In this document: positions 1,637 through 13,592 of the stretch, piece by piece
Position numbering within the stretch: the first letter of the stretch is position 1
Layout of the letters: each line of letters begins with the position of its first letter
Source of the DNA: Escherichia coli
Lineage (GTDB): Bacteria > Pseudomonadota > Gammaproteobacteria > Enterobacterales > Enterobacteriaceae
Assembly (NCBI RefSeq): GCF_003334785.1
Contig: NZ_QOWV01000001.1
Reading direction: 5' to 3' (one strand)
Length of the DNA: 64,000 nt
Position numbers and translations under genes: made by a program
The notes under the pieces: generated by a model
What the model saw: only the letters and a program-made list of their open reading frames with translations
Database searches by the model: none
Told to the model about the DNA's origin: nothing

Positions 1637-3097
1637 TTATTCATCTTTCGGCGCAGAATGCTGGCGACCAAAAATCACCTCCATCCGCGCACCGCCCAGC
1701 ATGCTCTCTCCGGCGACGATTTTACCCTCATATTGCTCGGTGATTTCGCGGGCTACCGCCAGCCCTACACCTTGCCCAGGGCGTAAAGTATCAACCCGTT
1801 GACCACGGTCGAAAATGACCTCTCGCTTGCTTAATGGAATACCGGGGCCATCATCCTCGACCACAATATAGAGATGCTCGTCGGTTTGCCTTGCAGAAAT
1901 TTCGACAAACTCGAGGCAATATTTACAGGCATTATCCAGCACGTTGCCCATCACCTCGACAAAATCGTTCTGCTCACCGACAAAGCTGATCTCTGGCGAA
2001 ATATCGAGAGAGATATTGACCCCTTTGCGTTGATACACTTTGTTCAGCGCTGAGGTGAGATTGTCCAGCAGTGGGGCGACCGGATGCAGCTCGCGGCTGA
2101 GCAATGTCCCGCCGCGCATACTGGCACGATGCAGGTAGTAGCCAATTTGCTGTGAAATGCGGCTGATTTGCTCCAGCATTACCGGCTCAGCATCACTGAC
2201 GCTCATCTTTTCACTACGCAGAGAACGCAGCGTACTTTGCAGCACCGCCAGTGGCGTTTTCAGACTATGGGTCAGGTCGGTGAGCGTCGTACGGTATTTG
2301 TCGTAACGTTCGCGTTCACTTTTTAACAATCGGTTCAGGTTTCGTACCAGACTGGTCAGTTCTCGCGTTGTGGCTGGATTGAGCAATTCGCGGTTATGTT
2401 CTTCCAGTTCGCGGACTTCTTTTGCCAGGGCTTCGATGGGGCGTAAACTCCACCAGGCGGCGACCCACAGCAGCGGGATCACTAACAGCAGATTGGCTGA
2501 GAGCACATAGATAAACCAGCTCCAGACCATATAGGAACTTTTTAGCTCCACCGGAATGGTATCCACCACCACAATGGTTAATTTTGGCATCCGCGATGTT
2601 GCCGGGTAGACGTTTACTGCCACCGAGTGGGTCATCTCCGCGTCGTCATCATCTTCCCGCACTTCCTGCAACTGTTGCTGTATCGAATGATCTCCACTCA
2701 GCAAGAGGCTGGTATCGTTAACATCCGCTTCAATTTCATGAAAACCATTCGATTTCAGCCAGTCAGGCTGGATCATCTTCATCAGCCAGGGCACGTCACG
2801 TTGCGCCCATAAAAGCTGCCCGTTCTCATCATAAATTAGCGTCATGGTGGGGCTTTGCTTGTCGATATTTTCGGGTAACTCGACATGCAACTTATTGTTT
2901 TCCCACTTCGCAAGGGTATAGAACAGATTGCTCTCGCCACGTAACAGCCGAAACGTAGTTTTATCGAAACTGACGCTATAACCGATCAGCGCGACCATTC
3001 CGTAGGCAAGCGAAAGCACCAGTACTACCGCTGCCGTTGCCAACAGAAAACGTACCCGCAGCGAGAGCGGGAAAAAAAGACGCAGTAATTTTTTCAT
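1637..3097 (-). CDS. phoQ: Sensor histidine kinase PhoQ
   Basis: 486-aa ORF with two N-terminal TM segments, periplasmic domain and HATPase C-terminus; start overlaps the phoP stop. Confidence 0.95.
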
Positions 3098-3828: not shown

Positions 3829-3845
3829 TAAACATTAAATAAACC
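3829..3845 (-). promoter_or_regulatory. PhoP box (direct repeat GGTTTA-N5-TGTTTA) in the phoPQ promoter
   Basis: Reverse complement reads GGTTTATTTAATGTTTA, about 60-77 bp upstream of the phoP ATG; matches the known autoregulatory PhoP box. Confidence 0.65.
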
Positions 3846-8443: not shown

Positions 8444-9694
8444 ATGGAAAGTAAAGTAGTTGTTCCGGCACAAGGCAAGAAGATCACCCTGCAAAACGGC
8501 AAACTCAACGTTCCTGAAAATCCGATTATCCCTTACATTGAAGGTGATGGAATCGGTGTAGATGTAACCCCAGCCATGCTGAAAGTGGTCGACGCTGCAG
8601 TCGAGAAAGCCTATAAAGGCGAGCGTAAAATCTCCTGGATGGAAATTTACACCGGTGAAAAATCCACACAGGTTTATGGTCAGGACGTCTGGCTGCCTGC
8701 TGAAACTCTTGATCTGATTCGTGAATATCGCGTTGCCATTAAAGGTCCGCTGACCACTCCGGTTGGTGGCGGTATTCGCTCTCTGAACGTTGCCCTGCGC
8801 CAGGAACTGGATCTCTACATCTGCCTGCGTCCGGTACGTTACTATCAGGGCACTCCAAGCCCGGTTAAACACCCTGAACTGACCGATATGGTTATCTTCC
8901 GTGAAAACTCGGAAGACATTTATGCGGGTATCGAATGGAAAGCAGACTCTGCCGACGCCGAGAAAGTGATTAAATTCCTGCGTGAAGAGATGGGGGTGAA
9001 GAAAATTCGCTTCCCGGAACATTGTGGTATCGGTATTAAGCCGTGTTCGGAAGAAGGCACCAAACGTCTGGTTCGTGCAGCGATCGAATACGCAATTGCT
9101 AACGATCGTGACTCTGTGACTCTGGTGCACAAAGGCAACATCATGAAGTTCACCGAAGGAGCGTTTAAAGACTGGGGCTACCAGCTGGCGCGTGAAGAGT
9201 TTGGCGGTGAACTGATCGACGGTGGCCCGTGGCTGAAAGTTAAAAACCCGAACACTGGCAAAGAGATCGTCATTAAAGACGTGATTGCTGATGCATTCCT
9301 GCAACAGATCCTGCTGCGTCCGGCTGAATATGATGTTATCGCCTGTATGAACCTGAACGGTGACTACATTTCTGACGCCCTGGCAGCGCAGGTTGGCGGT
9401 ATCGGTATCGCCCCTGGTGCAAACATCGGTGACGAATGCGCCCTGTTTGAAGCCACCCACGGTACTGCGCCGAAATATGCCGGTCAGGACAAAGTAAATC
9501 CTGGCTCTATTATTCTCTCCGCTGAGATGATGCTGCGCCATATGGGTTGGACTGAAGCGGCTGACCTGATTGTTAAAGGTATGGAAGGCGCAATCAATGC
9601 CAAGACCGTAACTTATGACTTCGAACGTCTGATGGAAGGCGCTAAGCTGCTGAAATGTTCAGAGTTTGGTGAAGCGATCATCGAAAACATGTAA
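8444..9694 (+). CDS. icd: Isocitrate dehydrogenase (NADP)
   Basis: 416-aa [46 protein letters not shown]... matches E. coli Icd; intact 3' end. Confidence 0.97.
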
Positions 9695-9716
9695 TCTCTC
9701 CATGTGTTAAATATTG

Positions 9717-9749
9717 AAACGGGCGTATAACACGCCCGTTGTTTTATTT
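9717..9749 (+). terminator. Rho-independent terminator of icd
   Basis: Hairpin AACGGGCGT-ataaca-ACGCCCGTT followed by GTTTTATTT, 23 bp after the icd stop. Confidence 0.75.
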
Positions 9750-9796
9750 ATGTGGATATTATTAATAGCATATCGAGCATATTTATATGAAGCCCA

Positions 9797-10120
9797 TTAC
9801 TTGAGCCCATATGGGCATATTTTTATAATGCAACTATTATGTAAACATTTATTTGTTATTTTGCTTTCTCCTGGAGGACACTCTTGACTGCTTTTGAGTA
9901 AACTCCATAAATCCTTGTTGAATGGTGCGATGTGATAAATAGTAATAGGATATTCTTTATCCTTAAGGATAATACCAGACTTAACCGGTGTAAATATACT
10001 GCCAGGAGGGAGAAATATAGTAGATTGATACCAGATGATCATTTTCATATTACCCCATATGGCTGAAAAAGATATACCACATGTAGGTTGAATTACCGTG
10101 TCAATTACTATCCACTTCAT
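9797..10120 (-). CDS. iraM: Anti-adaptor protein IraM (RssB inhibitor)
   Basis: 107-aa [35 protein letters not shown]... recognised as IraM/YcgW; AT-rich surroundings. Confidence 0.85.
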
Positions 10121-10562
10121 TTGTTATGTCTTATCCCACGGTATTTAATATGGTTCATTAGGATGTTTATTTCTTGATTTTGCATATGAGTATATTACCC
10201 CCCCCTCAAAAAAATAAATTAATTAAAATGATGGCTTATATAAAATAAAATTTAAAGCAAGGAATCTCAATGGATGTTAAACAAAATGAGATTTTGTGAA
10301 AGCAATAAATTATTGACTTCGTTTTAGATTTGTTTAGCTATAATGTTATACATTCAAATGACTGAACATCCTGTAATTAAAACATAGCCTTTATGCTACT
10401 TTGTGCCAATTTGCTAAACATTATGGTTGCCTTTTTATATAACGATAATAATGAATATAAGCATGACATGAGAATAAGGTTTCAATTTTTGAGTTATATA
10501 GGAATGATTTAACCTGTTCCTGGCTAAAATACATATAACCGGATGATGACTAAACCAAAATA

Positions 10563-10610
10563 CATGTGCGTTAAGTATTGAAACGGACGTGTGGCACGGC
10601 CGTTGTTTTT
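10563..10610 (+). repeat. Degenerate second copy of the icd 3'-flank/terminator sequence
   Basis: CATGTGCGTTAAGTATTGAAACGGACGTGTGGCACGGCCGTTGTTTTT versus 9701-9745 CATGTGTTAAATATTGAAACGGGCGTATAACACGCCCGTTGTTTT; roughly 80% identity by eye. Confidence 0.5.
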
Positions 10611-10819
10611 ATAAATATGTTAACCGTTATAAAATAACGTATCAAAAGTCAAGTGATCACATTTCAAATATCAAGTTGATAGTATTAGTCTGGTGATTAT
10701 TTATGGGTGACAATAAAAAGACAGTATTAATCATCCATAGAGATAGTCTCTGCACTTTTATTTCCATTATGCTAATGCCTTACTGAATTATGAAGCATTT
10801 CTTAAGTATCCAACTTTAG

Positions 10820-11224
10820 CTAGATTAATGGTTTATTATTTTCTACATCTTCAATATATAAAAGCGTATTATCAATGGCGTAGTAACTGCGTTTGTTATG
10901 ATTAACATCAGTAACCCACCGGAAAACGCCCGCGCCTGCCAGTGTTGAACAGTATTCCCGAAATGTAGATTTTCCGCAAATATGAAGCAATGCGGCCTCT
11001 TTTATTTTAGCAGGGTTCTTGGTCGTACTAACTTTTAACAGGTTCCTGGTTCCTCTTAATAACAAAACCGTATCATCGTGAGTAATAATTCTGATGTTAT
11101 CCGTAGCCAGATAATAAATGTAATGTGCAATACGGTGATGTTTTAATTCTGAATAAAACCAGGAGAAGTTTTGCTCTTTTCTCACTTGCTCAAACATCTT
11201 TTGAAAAACAACGACCTGATCCAT
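10820..11224 (-). CDS. ycgX: DUF1398-family protein YcgX
   Basis: 134-aa ORF MDQVVVFQKMFEQVRKEQNFSWFYSELKHHRIAHYIYY... recognised as YcgX. Confidence 0.8.
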   Translation of the reverse strand: MDQVVVFQKMFEQVRKEQNFSWFYSELKHHRIAHYIYYLATDNIRIITHDDTVLLLRGTRNLLKVSTTKNPAKIKEAALLHICGKSTFREYCSTLAGAGVFRWVTDVNHNKRSYYAIDNTLLYIEDVENNKPLI

Positions 11225-11444
11225 CAGGATAATAACCTCTTGTTAGTTGTGAGACTGCGTAGTGTGCACGATCGGTTTTACCACTTCAATCTGGTCTGTC
11301 CTTTGGCTGTGATATGTACAGAGTGTGATAGAGGGAATATCTGAATTCTCCCGGTGAGCATTTTGCAACGGACCAGCTCCGGTACAAACGCTGTTGTGGG
11401 TTCAGATTATAACATTCTGTCTAAGGGGCGGGATAAAGGTGAAA

Positions 11445-12176
11445 TTAGGGGGCATGAAAGATGACTTTATAACCTTGCTCACCCCAGTGTTGTAAAAGTT
11501 CGTTTTGCCTTCTCGTTGGTGCCATGCCTGTCCAGACAATCAATGTTTGCGTCGGGAACAGTTCCGGGCGCGGCGATTCAATGGGATCAGCAAGAACAGA
11601 AATGTGCCATCCTGACAATGATAAACGCCATGCTTCCAGCCACAATCGTGCTCTCTCTTCAACATTCCACGCCATCAGAATGGCTTCTTTACCGGGCTTA
11701 CGGCGCATTTCGAAAAGCGAGGTTGCTGCGTATTCAATTAATGCGCCGTCAAACATACTGCTCATAATGCGGGAGGTGTTGTGATCAAGCACGAGACGCT
11801 GGCGAACAGGAAGGTAAACATGATTAATCAATTGATCTACTGGGTACTCTCGACCCAGTGAAATAATTCTCGCGCGTAGTTTGGCAGGATTAGCCATGCG
11901 AAGAATTGACATCATCTCTTCTTGCAGGCGGCTCCAGTCATCTTCCGTATCCTGGCTGGTGGTTTCCAGTAATGCTTTAACTTTGCCTACAGGGACGCCA
12001 TTACTTATCCAACGCTTGATCTCTTCGATGCGTTGTATGTCTTCTTCATCAAAGAGTCGGTGTCCGCCTTCACTGCGCTGTGGTTTTAACAAACCGTAGC
12101 GGCGTTGCCAGGCCCGGAGAGTGACAGGATTAATCCCGCAACGTTCAGCAACATCACCAATGCTGTAATAAGCCAC
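11445..12176 (-). CDS. bluR: MerR-family transcriptional repressor BluR (YcgE)
   Basis: 243-aa ORF with N-terminal MerR helix-turn-helix ([27 protein letters not shown]); GTG start. Confidence 0.9.
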
Positions 12177-12209
12177 AATTCCTCCTTGCGGTCACAAATC
12201 TCCGTCGCC

Positions 12210-12260
12210 TGTACACGACCCAATAATACTTTGTACAATATACGCTAAAATTGTACAAAG
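12210..12260. promoter_or_regulatory. Cluster of TGTACA palindromes upstream of bluR (candidate MerR-type operator)
   Basis: TGTACA at 12210-12215 and two copies of the self-complementary 8-mer TTGTACAA at 12231-12238 and 12251-12258, forming a 10-bp inverted repeat CTTTGTACAA...TTGTACAAAG. Confidence 0.4.
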
Positions 12261-12380
12261 TATAAATAAGATTTCAGCTAAATTGGATGAAACATTATTT
12301 TTAATGTGGATTAAATTTAAACGTAACGTATTCATTTTCACGATGATTTACTGAAATCATGTGAAAGAATGTGCTGAAAA

Positions 12381-13592
12381 TTATTTTTTCTCTGGCCACG
12401 CTATGGAAGGGATACCATTCAATTTAGCTTTAGCAAACAGATCTCCCTGAAACATCTCAATTCCTGCGGATTCAAGCCACATCCACTCTTCTGGTGTTGC
12501 CACGCCCATAGCACTGACTTGAATTTCAAGTGATGTACAGCATTTTATGATCGCCTGAATAATTGCCTGCCGTGGCCCACTTTTATGAACATTGGTAATC
12601 AATTCCTGACTGATTTTAATTCTGTCAGGCTGGAAGCGTGACAGGAGTAACAAACCAGCAAAACCTGCGCCAAAATGATCAATTGCTACACTGATACCAG
12701 CAGCCTTTAGCGATTTAATCGCTTCGGCAAACTCATCAAACCGAGATATGACTTCACTTTCAGTAAATTCAACGATGATTTGTTCAGGCACCAGAGCATT
12801 GGCCTTTATTTCATTAAGTAAAAAAGAGACTGCGTCAGGTTCGTTAACCAGGGTCATAGGTAATAGATTGATTGAAATCATTTTATCACCGAGCTCAAGT
12901 GCGTGTGCCATCGTGAATGCAAGCGCCTTACTTTTGAGATCCGCTGTGTAGATTTCCCCGTCTTTACGCTGCCCAACCGCTATGGCTGATGGGCTATCTT
13001 CATTTTTTTGCACAATGGCTTCAAAAGCGATTATCCGCCGCGATAAGGGATCGACAATAGGATGAAAGGCAAAGTGGTCGTTTATAGTTGGTGAAAGGGC
13101 ACAGGAATCAAGTTCTTTATCAGATCCGTCAGCGATAAAAAGCCAGGAGTCTTCGGCAGGGATCTCGAAATAGGTTGATTGTTCGGTTGCAAGGACAAAA
13201 GTACGAAAAAATTGTAGCGCTCTGTCATCATAAGTTAGCTGAAATTTTGATGTGCCTTTGTCGAATACGGCCTGTAAAACGTCATCTCGCTCGTGCAGGC
13301 GCAAATCAAATAATTCCATTCCCGCTTTGCCAAAACGGCGAGCAGGCGCGTAATCGCACAGCAGCTCAACAATATTATAGTGCCGTGGATCCTGACATAT
13401 AGCCCGATATATCATTTTAACCTGTTCTTCCGGACCTTCCAGAAGCTGGAAAAAATGAGAACCATTAAACAGTAAGATCCCTGTTACGTCAGACTGCATG
13501 TTCCTGCGATTTGCTATCGAAACCATTTCTTCGATTTTTTTGACAGGTTCGTCGTCACGTATATGGCTACGATAAATAAGGGTGGTAAGCAT
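12381..13592 (-). CDS. bluF: Blue-light sensor BluF (BLUF plus degenerate EAL domain; BluR antagonist)
   Basis: ORF contains MLTTLIYRSHIRDDEPVKKIEEMVSIANRRNMQSDVTGILLFNG (BLUF) and a C-terminal EAL-like region; start placed at MLTT for 403 aa. Confidence 0.9.
   Translation of the reverse strand: MLTTLIYRSHIRDDEPVKKIEEMVSIANRRNMQSDVTGILLFNGSHFFQLLEGPEEQVKMIYRAICQDPRHYNIVELLCDYAPARRFGKAGMELFDLRLHERDDVLQAVFDKGTSKFQLTYDDRALQFFRTFVLATEQSTYFEIPAEDSWLFIADGSDKELDSCALSPTINDHFAFHPIVDPLSRRIIAFEAIVQKNEDSPSAIAVGQRKDGEIYTADLKSKALAFTMAHALELGDKMISINLLPMTLVNEPDAVSFLLNEIKANALVPEQIIVEFTESEVISRFDEFAEAIKSLKAAGISVAIDHFGAGFAGLLLLSRFQPDRIKISQELITNVHKSGPRQAIIQAIIKCCTSLEIQVSAMGVATPEEWMWLESAGIEMFQGDLFAKAKLNGIPSIAWPEKK

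Follow-up and report, generated by a model that had tools for sequence, protein, structure and literature searches.

Probable prophage remnants behind the AT-rich iraM–ycgX islet between icd and bluR of Escherichia coli

Between icd and bluR of Escherichia coli lies a small islet of AT-rich DNA with iraM and ycgX on its minus strand, and the question it raises is where this DNA came from and how it became part of the chromosome. We analysed it within a window of 64,000 nucleotides of one E. coli contig (NZ_QOWV01000001.1). The preliminary description of the locus had called the interval AT-rich relative to icd and bluR, and the computed values bear this out: G+C in 9750–11440 (1,691 bp) is 34.1% against 48.3% over the entire window; just 0.4% of windows of equal size have so low a value, and the lowest of all falls here. 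By feature, G+C is 34.0% in iraM, 29.3% in the iraM–ycgX spacer and 36.8% in ycgX, compared with 50.0% in icd and 48.8% in bluR; the ycgX–bluR spacer has 45.5%, and the true end of the low-GC block lies at about 11300. Codon usage is likewise atypical, with GC3 values of 0.31 (iraM) and 0.37 (ycgX) against 0.52 (icd), and window-relative codon adaptation indices (CAI) of 0.52 (iraM) and 0.62 (ycgX) against 0.73 ± 0.05 for a reference set of 20 long ORFs. Both composition and codon usage of the islet thus deviate from those of the host, whereas values indistinguishable from the average would have spoken against foreign origin.

The features of the locus are as follows, with gene identities from RefSeq annotation taken from near-identical genomes:

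8444–9694, plus strand: icd, intact (ORF and RefSeq annotation of a 99.9% identical locus)
9703–9745, unstranded: direct repeat copy 1, the icd terminator (repeat search, folding, terminator scan)
9746–10566, minus strand: interior of the iraM cassette, 821 bp (presence counts, junction alignment)
9797–10120, minus strand: iraM (NCBIfam, PDB, phrog_4407, ORF listing, RefSeq annotation)
10117–10185, minus strand: 22-codon stub ORF (translation, alignment to AP027764)
10309–10337, minus strand: candidate iraM control element (proposed from pattern search and promoter scan)
10377–10421, minus strand: ymgK, 14-aa small protein (exact peptide match, RefSeq annotation)
10567–10609, unstranded: direct repeat copy 2, a degenerate icd terminator (36/43 identical to copy 1)
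10610–10650, unstranded: right flank of copy 2 (weak local alignment to the e14 attL-proximal region)
10657–10767, minus strand: ymgL, 36-aa small protein (exact peptide match, UniProt YMGL_ECOLI cluster)
10766–10794, minus strand: sigma-70 promoter-like site TTCATA-17-CATAAT (promoter scan, table in PMC3946193)
10820–11224, minus strand: ycgX, DUF1398 protein (PDB 2HH8, phrog_413, ORF listing, RefSeq annotation)

For iraM and ycgX, the ORF listing, NCBIfam, PDB and RefSeq annotation agree with the identities and the strand given earlier. The same description had allowed for only two small genes, separated by about 700 bp of non-coding DNA. The length of the spacer holds (699 bp), but its non-coding character and the count of genes do not, as ymgK and ymgL lie inside it, intact, together with the iraM control region and the second icd terminator copy. 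The proteins of both small genes have been detected by epitope tagging (PMC6001520). The -10 element of the promoter-like site at 10766–10794 overlaps the ymgL start codon, and the same TTCATA/CATAAT pair appears in a table of constitutive RpoD promoters, listed together with H-NS for the iraM/ycgX spacer (PMC3946193). No integrase or transposase was found among the ORFs of 9695–11444, and an Rfam scan of 9000–12500 returned nothing near any gathering score.

The product of the first gene matches NCBIfam model NF007393 over its full length (residues 1–107; 172.6 bits, cutoff 121), and its residues 1–78 match PDB chain 8TWD_A, the crystallised IraM, by sequence (E 8.6e-50). Judged by these matches it is IraM itself, the RssB anti-adaptor, with no difference at the protein level; the DNA of the locus is 100% identical to that of K-12. 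IraM, whose K-12 protein is identical, blocks RssB-mediated delivery of sigma-S to ClpXP (PMC10844676, PMC10948607), and the PmrD-like beta-barrel fold seen in the IraM-RssB crystal structure (PMC10844676) is predicted for the window protein through its match to 8TWD_A. YcgX matches PDB 2HH8 (YdfO) over residues 1–130 (E 1.7e-37) and phrog_413 (E 1.5e-41), and no NCBIfam model was hit; by homology it is a DUF1398 protein, its gene a paralogue of the prophage genes ydfO and ybcV.

Both proteins thus fall into phage families, IraM into phrog_4407 and YcgX into phrog_413. Copies of IraM with 57–70% identity are found inside lambdoid and Stx prophages, antisense between stx2B (or lpxR) and nanS-p, and copies of YcgX with 44% identity are encoded in lambda-like phages between lysis and terminase genes. 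Members of both families occur in phages as antisense morons, and one prophage (L022) has both in the order and orientation of the window. Among 5.8 billion protein clusters the IraM family was seen only in Escherichia, PF11183 being recorded on all relatives, and a scan of genome contigs with IraM gave just two matches, a prophage copy in E. albertii and a contig of 558 bp. When the cassette DNA was compared with sequenced phages, homology was confined to the iraM coding region (72.6%), and the regulatory half had no counterpart among 50,697 phage records.

These data, with the atypical composition and codons and a variable presence among strains, uphold the proposal of horizontal acquisition made in the preliminary description. 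Could the islet instead be native DNA, low in G+C because selection on a non-essential region is relaxed? The CAI values of bluR (0.61) and bluF (0.60) are also lowish, and almost all E. coli have ycgX in strongly conserved form. A native origin nevertheless appears very improbable, because both proteins belong to phage families with copies in active phages, the IraM family is confined to Escherichia, and the presence/absence polymorphism is clean.

How this foreign DNA is bounded is shown by two 43-nt direct repeats with 36 of 43 positions identical (at most 28 in shuffled sequences), which enclose the iraM part of the islet next to the 3' end of icd, a known hot spot of integration. Copy 1 is the icd terminator: its hairpin (9718–9740) folds with -18.4 kcal/mol on the plus strand (z -4.5) and -17.3 kcal/mol on the minus strand (z -4.6), and is predicted to be bidirectional, able to end both icd (plus) and iraM (minus) transcripts. 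The hairpin of copy 2 (10582–10604) folds with -11.7 kcal/mol on the plus and -9.7 kcal/mol on the minus strand; this copy sits 48 nt downstream of the ymgL stop, from where it could insulate the iraM promoter from ycgX–ymgL transcription. In two other haplotypes (L013 and L014), copy 2 differs from copy 1 by only 2 of 30 nt. Because of the two copies, the iraM segment, 864 bp counting one repeat, is a cleanly bounded cassette. It is carried by 3,944 of 5,426 complete E. coli genomes (73%), and the exact empty junction occurs in 1,036 (19%); junction alignment indicates that it is present or missing as one unit. ycgX is present in 5,040 of these genomes, with at least 99% identity in 4,522 records, and no direct repeats were found around it. 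Presence and absence across genomes, which had been suggested as a check on foreign origin, thus agree with it. That iraM resides on a repeat-bounded 864-bp cassette is a new, if modest, structural detail.

The nature of the repeats points to icd-integrating phages. Phages of the e14/phage 21 type use the last 165 nt of icd as their attachment region, and the last 173 nt are 100% identical to icdC, the displaced fragment that borders e14 on the right in K-12. Positions 9640–9747 of the window, from the end of icd through its terminator, have matches in about 28 free phage genomes, phage 21 among them, and this homology stops at 9747, the left edge of the cassette. The annotation of phage 21 gives, in order, an ICDH-like pseudogene, an element labelled 'terminator', the attP arm sites and int, and the prophage after icd in O157 has the same layout. 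The window itself has no prophage inserted at icd; integrases were found only in intact prophages at the icd site of other strains. Only the 43-nt terminator part of a displaced icd end survives in the window, no icd similarity being found to the left of copy 2 beyond these 43 nt, and the sequence to the right of copy 1 bears no likeness to the arms of e14 or phage 21 (z -1.2) or to the flank of copy 2. That right flank shows a weak similarity to the GTTATCAAAA-type repeats of the e14 attL-proximal region (about 25/31, z 3.1, with 1.2% of shuffles as good).

More of such an event is retained in AP027764, a rare divergent haplotype whose bluR is 98.6% and whose ymgL–ycgX flank is 84.6% identical to the window. 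There, copy 1 is followed by 37 nt of which 35 are identical to the left end of e14 (z 22), with 86.9% identity over 236 nt, and then by a hypothetical gene, a transposase fragment, trkG, iraM and an AriR-family gene. The final codons of icd stand before copy 2 (16/19, z 6.3; 66 nt at 78.8%, E 8e-12). We also considered whether its 455-aa hypothetical protein corresponds to an unsplit YmfD+YmfE of e14 (221+234 aa), which was rejected for want of any similarity. Copy 1 of the window coincides with the phage-borne segment, which ends at 9747, and copy 2 retains icd codons in AP027764. Since phages of the phage 21 family carry the icd end and terminator beside attP, and since in the divergent haplotype e14-type sequence follows copy 1 while icd codons precede copy 2, scars of prophages at icd are the best reading of the locus; as the window has no integrase, attP arm repeats or structural phage genes, this origin rests on comparison. 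We consider it probable that the islet consists of stacked, decayed prophage remnants at the icd site, of which two morons were kept and came under host regulation.

Flanking direct repeats are also produced by transposition or unequal crossing-over, and the AP027764 island does contain a transposase fragment, so that the repeat might stem from a tandem duplication at the 3' end of icd itself or from the target-site duplication of a transposable element, with no prophage involved. A length of 43–66 nt, however, far exceeds known target duplications, and the cassette has neither bounding inverted repeats nor a transposase. The icd-integrating phages carry the same segment, ending at the cassette edge, and copy 1 in AP027764 is followed by e14-type sequence. 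We therefore regard such a duplication as improbable.

On the reading as prophage remnants, the following steps may be proposed: i) phages of the phage 21/e14 family would bring their own last 165 nt of icd and the icd terminator, adjoining attP; ii) integration would fuse this phage copy to icd and shift the resident 3' part of icd, with its terminator, to the distal prophage end; iii) later deletions would have taken nearly the whole prophage, including the displaced icd coding fragment; and iv) copy 1 (phage-borne), iraM with its control region, copy 2 (read as the resident icd terminator pushed away by the old prophage) and ymgL–ycgX would have been left behind. The ymgL–ycgX part may go back to a similar, older event, a suggestion that rests on the weak flank match (z 3.1); phage-associated transfer of the ycgX–bluR region has been proposed before (PMC3509220). 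Taken furthest, the icd–bluR interval would be a layered 'prophage graveyard', in which successive e14/phage 21-family integrations each left an icd terminator and one domesticated moron (iraM, perhaps ycgX) and in which the repeats make iraM precisely excisable. We give this fuller picture an even chance; if true, an excisable iraM would explain strain differences in sigma-S control.

The phage concerned is not the e14 of today, although iraM has been stated to be part of the e14 prophage of K-12 (Hryckowian et al. 2014), where it lies about 100 bp from the right end of e14. The order in K-12 is e14, icdC and then iraM, the resident icd end having been displaced, so that iraM lies beyond the icdC that marks attR, and RefSeq ends e14 earlier. 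In the window, intact icd is followed directly by iraM, without e14 genes. Displacement of the resident icd end is also seen in B2-type strains, which carry a sitABCD prophage, then icdC, then ymgL. Strains with a prophage other than e14 at icd can have iraM at the same place: FDAARGOS_1291, with the same sit prophage and icdC, has retained it. Membership in present-day e14 is thus refuted, iraM being present in the e14-free window and outside attL–attR in K-12, and we see next to no chance for it; the event behind the islet is ancient.

The state without iraM, found in about 19% of genomes (a B2-like clade), can be read in two ways. About 12 loci were inspected base by base, and in the four iraM-less ones among those read, the icd 3' end is followed by a copy-1-type hairpin and then by the right flank of copy 2. 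If the repeats act as an excision scar, iraM would be easy to lose, and the state would be a secondary, precise deletion between the terminator copies. A crossover in the shared segment ...CACGCCCGTTG / CCGTTGTTTT would produce precisely the empty junction, the four iraM-less strains form one clade in a local tree (right flank, bluR and bluF), every other E. coli sampled has iraM, as does AP027764, and FDAARGOS_1291 keeps it despite the same prophage and icdC. On the other hand, this tree places the iraM-less strains as the sister group of all remaining E. coli, so that the polarity of loss or gain depends on AP027764, a mosaic that is unsafe as an outgroup, and all empty junctions seen carry a copy-1-type loop, which fits primary absence equally well. 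A secondary deletion is accordingly as apt to be wrong as right. Alternatively, the iraM prophage never reached this clade, and among other lineages the cassette was passed on by descent and through recombination between homologous flanks. The prophage model needs an empty pre-integration state of exactly this structure, the region is mosaic through recombination, and iraM/iraL are patchy across pathotypes (PMC4045071). Such an ancestral absence would, however, need two gains or lateral transfer to account for iraM in both the common and the AP027764 haplotypes, and cassette divergence of up to about 7% within E. coli suggests long residence; we find it plausible, at somewhat short of an even chance.

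Upstream of iraM, a pattern search allowing 2 mismatches found a PhoP-box-like direct repeat, CGTTTTAGATTTGTTTA(G), at 10320–10337, and the promoter scan found a minus-strand TAAACA-16-AATAAT (10336 to 10309) that overlaps it. Four E. coli haplotypes have the repeat without any change, and AP027764 has it almost unchanged. Against the PhoP box (T/G)GTTTA-N5-(T/G)GTTTA, the best candidate (10320–10336) shows 2 mismatches, and its placement with respect to the candidate -10 is unusual. We infer that 10309–10337 is a candidate iraM control element. Induction of iraM is PhoP-dependent (PMC10948607), and H-NS control has been described by Battesti et al.; the H-NS silencing suggested in the preliminary description is in this respect supported and, like the horizontal origin, already published. 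A scan for the high-affinity H-NS motif TCGATAAATT was uninformative, with 78 matches in the window against 80 expected. According to the literature, the present function of the islet is that H-NS binds and represses the AT-rich DNA and that low Mg2+ activates PhoQ/PhoP and so induces iraM; IraM then binds RssB and stops delivery of sigma-S to ClpXP, and therefore sigma-S accumulates. A plus-strand promoter (perfect TATAAT at 10339–10344, directly beyond the PhoP-box-like repeat) for an unannotated RNA ending at copy 2 was also considered and rejected, its -10 being polymorphic among haplotypes and absent in AP027764.

The stub ORF ends in a TGA that overlaps the iraM ATG (ATGA). Its first 11 or so codons align to the 5' end of the AriR/YmgB-family gene that is intact in AP027764, and it is probably a relic of such a gene. 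It was never called among 15 billion proteins, nor reported in the literature searched. A conserved leader peptide was rejected on these grounds and because haplotype differences are mostly nonsynonymous and Shine-Dalgarno spacing is poor; a coupling leader is a side possibility against which the evidence leans.

The islet is ordinary, mostly published biology, and the current view of the system is unchanged. Its interest lies in the role of iraM, which determines how far the general stress sigma factor is stabilised when magnesium is limiting or when cells meet acid stress. Strains differ in possessing iraM, so its cassette and its non-e14 status may help comparison of stress responses and annotation of E. 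coli genomes. The position of iraM outside today's e14 corrects a statement in the literature, and the case illustrates that scars at att sites may make phage accessory genes host-regulated.

The islet resembles several known systems. As in integration of phage 21/e14 at icd, the phage-borne icd end and terminator are the same sequences as copy 1, and the displaced resident icd copy follows the same logic as copy 2; the islet differs in having no prophage, icd coding fragment, attP arms or int. In the IraM/IraL/RssC family, the window protein shares the NF007393/PF11183 membership and the PmrD-like fold, whereas IraL (CFT073, potB island) is 59% identical to IraM and expressed in log phase, and the phage-borne IraM copies, at 57–70% identity, do not have the upstream region of the islet copy. 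The PhoP-regulated acquired genes of Salmonella, silenced by H-NS (PMC4196223), are likewise AT-rich foreign DNA, and for iraM both H-NS repression and PhoP activation are published; its PhoP-box-like repeat, however, has 2 mismatches and an odd placement. Unlike in xenogeneic silencing by H-NS, ycgX is reported to depend on Hha/YdgT and not on H-NS/StpA, since mutation of hha/ydgT derepressed it and mutation of hns/stpA did not (PMC3686432). Among accessory genes there is a parallel with the lambdoid phage morons ybcV (DLP12), ydfO (Qin), trkG (Rac) and the stx2-adjacent iraM-like gene, which are small, AT-rich, antisense in the late region and equipped with their own signals. Homologues of the islet genes occupy such positions, once both in one prophage and in the same order, whereas the copies in the islet belong to the chromosome and have become fixed in most strains, iraM having gained PhoP/H-NS control.

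The interval between icd and bluR (9750-11440) is as AT-rich as the preliminary description had claimed, with 34.1% G+C against 48.3% for the whole window; only 0.4% of same-size windows are equally low, and the window-wide minimum falls inside this islet. The fall in G+C starts directly 3' of the icd terminator and recovery occurs near 11300.

G+C content of genes and spacers from icd to bluR
icd, 50.0%
iraM, 34.0%
iraM-ycgX spacer (699 bp), 29.3%
ycgX, 36.8%
ycgX-bluR spacer, 45.5%
bluR, 48.8%

Codon usage, which had been proposed as a check, agrees with an atypical composition: GC3 is 0.31 for iraM and 0.37 for ycgX against 0.52 for icd, and the window-relative CAI is 0.52 and 0.62, respectively, against 0.73 +/- 0.05 for 20 long reference ORFs, being likewise low for bluR and bluF. 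The islet is the first segment of a longer low-GC patchwork extending to about 21.7 kb, which by the annotation of a near-identical genome includes bluF, ycgZ-ymgA-ariR-ymgC, pdeG, ymgF, ycgH and ymgD/G/I/J and stops before minE. Several complete E. coli genomes match 9600-11500 at 100%.

Two small genes separated by non-coding DNA had been described. The genes, iraM and ycgX, and their 699-bp separation stand, but the spacer holds intact ymgK and ymgL, both of which have been seen as tagged proteins (VanOrsdel et al. 2018, PMC6001520).

Features of the islet
9797-10120, minus strand, iraM (NCBIfam IraM model, 172.6 bits, cutoff 121; PDB 8TWD_A, E 8.6e-50)
10117-10185, minus strand, 22-codon stub ORF whose TGA overlaps the iraM ATG (ATGA)
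10320-10337, PhoP-box-like direct repeat with 2 mismatches, a candidate iraM control element
10377-10421, ymgK, intact ORF in the spacer
10657-10767, ymgL, intact ORF in the spacer
10794..10766, sigma-70-like site TTCATA-17-CATAAT, predicted by promoter scan
10820-11224, minus strand, ycgX (DUF1398; solved YdfO structure 2HH8 matched at E 1.7e-37)

For the iraM/ycgX spacer, Shimada et al. 2014 (PMC3946193) list the TTCATA/CATAAT pair among constitutive RpoD promoters and give an H-NS site with it; since its -10 hexamer overlaps the ymgL start codon, it cannot be a promoter for ymgL translation. The PhoP-box-like repeat is unchanged in 4 E. coli haplotypes and nearly unchanged in a very divergent one, and overlaps a minus-strand -35/-10 pair found by promoter scan. 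On the plus strand, a perfect TATAAT (10339-10344), 2 nt past this repeat and antisense to ymgK, varies between haplotypes and is missing in the rare divergent haplotype AP027764, which makes a functional role unlikely. An Rfam scan gave no match in the islet region.

Repression of iraM by H-NS is reported (Battesti et al. 2012). Low Mg2+ induces iraM through PhoQ/PhoP, and acid does so via SafA or MgrB (PMC10948607); IraM engages both RssB domains and prevents sigma-S delivery to ClpXP (PMC10844676). ycgX is derepressed in an hha/ydgT mutant and not in an hns/stpA mutant (PMC3686432). The window's only perfect PhoP box (GGTTTATTTAATGTTTA, 3829-3845, minus strand) lies ~60 nt upstream of phoP, whose start synteny places at about 3768 on the minus strand, so that only some 6 kb separate the activator gene from its target iraM.

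A 43-nt direct repeat at 9703-9745 (copy 1) and 10567-10609 (copy 2), 864 bp apart, bounds an iraM cassette; the TATAAT at 10339-10344 faces copy 2. The copies are identical at 36 of 43 positions, and shuffles reach at most 28. Copy 1 occupies the position of the icd terminator and folds at -18.4 and -17.3 kcal/mol on the two strands (z about -4.5); judged by this predicted hairpin, it can terminate transcription of icd as well as of iraM. Copy 2 folds more weakly in the window (-11.7 and -9.7 kcal/mol). In other E. coli haplotypes the stems of the two copies are identical and no more than 2 of 30 positions differ, so the pair began as a true duplication. We explain the repeat-bounded cassette as the putative scar of a prophage once integrated at the icd attachment site.

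In AP027764, 35 of the 37 nt after copy 1 agree with the left end of e14, the icd-integrating phage carried by K-12 (z 22), and with the icd end included the identity is 86.9% over 236 nt, suggesting an e14-type left end for the element with which iraM arrived. Next come a hypothetical gene, a transposase fragment, trkG (annotated by RefSeq as adjoining iraM), iraM (82% nucleotide identity) and an intact AriR-family gene, beyond which lies upstream sequence common with the window (74% identity). This extra AriR/YmgB-family gene is at 2142-2402 (minus strand) of locus L003 and 1625-1885 of L004. The last icd codons precede copy 2 (16/19, z 6.3; 66 nt at 78.8%, E 8e-12), for which reason copy 2 is read as a probable displaced icd 3' end. 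The common E. coli cassette would then be a deletion derivative of an AP027764-like island. The first ~11 codons of the stub ORF are the start of the AriR-family gene. The ORF is open in 4 haplotypes, but since its substitutions are mostly nonsynonymous and no annotation or report was found among 15 billion proteins and in the literature searched, it is probably a relic.

Some 28 genomes of free lambdoid phages, that of phage 21 among them, match the region from the icd end through the terminator (9640-9747), and the match ends at the left edge of the cassette. The phage 21 record (OL657228.1, locus L028) has, in order, an ICDH-like pseudogene, the terminator, attP arm sites and int, with sitABCD just upstream of the icd fragment and attP; an O157 prophage after icd has the same layout. 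Since phages carry the icd end and terminator found at the cassette edge, integration would place the phage-borne terminator beside icd and shift the icd end and terminator already resident there to the opposite end of the prophage. Such displacement is directly visible in K-12, where e14 is followed by icdC, the displaced icd 3' fragment, and then iraM, and in sit-prophage strains. The 'sit island' beside icdC in ATCC 11775 and UPEC strains (L010-L012) also has the phage 21 layout and is thus a phage 21-like prophage. The right flank of copy 2 weakly resembles the e14 left-end region (z 3.1), so that ymgL-ycgX may, tentatively, be a similar but older scar.

Presence and absence across genomes, also proposed as a check, were scored in 5,426 complete E. 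coli genomes: the cassette interior is present in 3,944 (73%), an exact empty junction in 1,036 (19%) and ycgX in 5,040 (93%); 4,522 of the ycgX records reach 99% identity or more. The cassette diverges by up to about 7% within E. coli. Polymorphism for iraM/iraL has been published (Hryckowian et al. 2014, PMC4045071). At the empty junction the icd 3' end is followed by a copy-1-type hairpin and the right flank of copy 2. All four iraM-less loci inspected, including that of the type strain ATCC 11775, have a sitABCD-bearing element in icd and a displaced icd 3' fragment adjoining ymgL; one strain with the same element retains iraM. In a neighbour-joining tree (right flank, bluR and bluF) the four strains form one clade, sister to the remaining sampled E. 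coli, with AP027764 outside, a topology that favours a single deletion event between the two repeats. AP027764, however, is mosaic: identity to the window is 98.6% in bluR and 84.6% in the ymgL-ycgX flank, which suggests import of a very divergent islet allele and makes the polarity of the tree unsafe; loss and primary absence of iraM stand at roughly even odds.

Insertion sequences recur in the AT-rich tract (L017, 374-1071; L015, 6993-7690; database matches H1, H5, H36, H44 and H18). GPEC206-621 has an IS1 within the 51-nt gap between copy 1 and the iraM stop, IS1 is annotated beneath the cassette match in several further strains, PCN033 has IS200C there, and bluF is split by IS1 in strain 2017.17.01CC. 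In FDAARGOS_1249, whose islet is 99.9-100% identical to the window, bluF is a pseudogene with an internal stop (L001 4283-4902; L018 9926-11137); the window's bluF ORF (12381-13592) is open. O157:H7 has an integrase-bearing prophage directly 3' of icd (L016, 6148-12085), and the junction query matched this genome once, along the icd end and terminator only, fitting the published absence of the whole bluR-bluF-ycgZ-ymgAB unit from classical O157:H7 strains (PMC3509220).

IraM and YcgX belong to phage families phrog_4407 and phrog_413, respectively. Relatives of IraM (57-70% identical) occur in lambdoid prophages, in antisense orientation between stx2B (or lpxR) and nanS-p, those of YcgX (44% identical) lie antisense between lysis genes and Nu1, and one prophage (L022) carries both genes in the order and orientation of the window. 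No IraM family members outside Escherichia were found among 5.8 billion protein clusters. IraM residues 1-47 are also encoded, at 100% identity, on a 558-bp low-coverage contig of an Oceanospirillum linum assembly (L008), most likely through contamination with E. coli DNA. The horizontal acquisition originally suggested is right, given the phage-family genes, their phage relatives, the atypical composition and the variable presence, and phage-associated transfer of the ycgX-bluR region had been proposed by Tschowri et al. 2012 (PMC3509220).

The islet observation is real, but both it and its interpretation are already in the literature; what is added is structural, namely the repeat-bounded iraM cassette as a probable prophage scar, its population frequencies and a correction concerning e14. 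Hryckowian et al. described K-12 iraM as 'found on the e14 prophage' (PMC4045071). A location within present e14 is rejected: the window, without e14, has iraM directly after intact icd, and K-12 iraM lies beyond icdC, which marks the right end of e14. Instead, iraM seems to have been left behind by an older phage that belonged to the integration family of e14.
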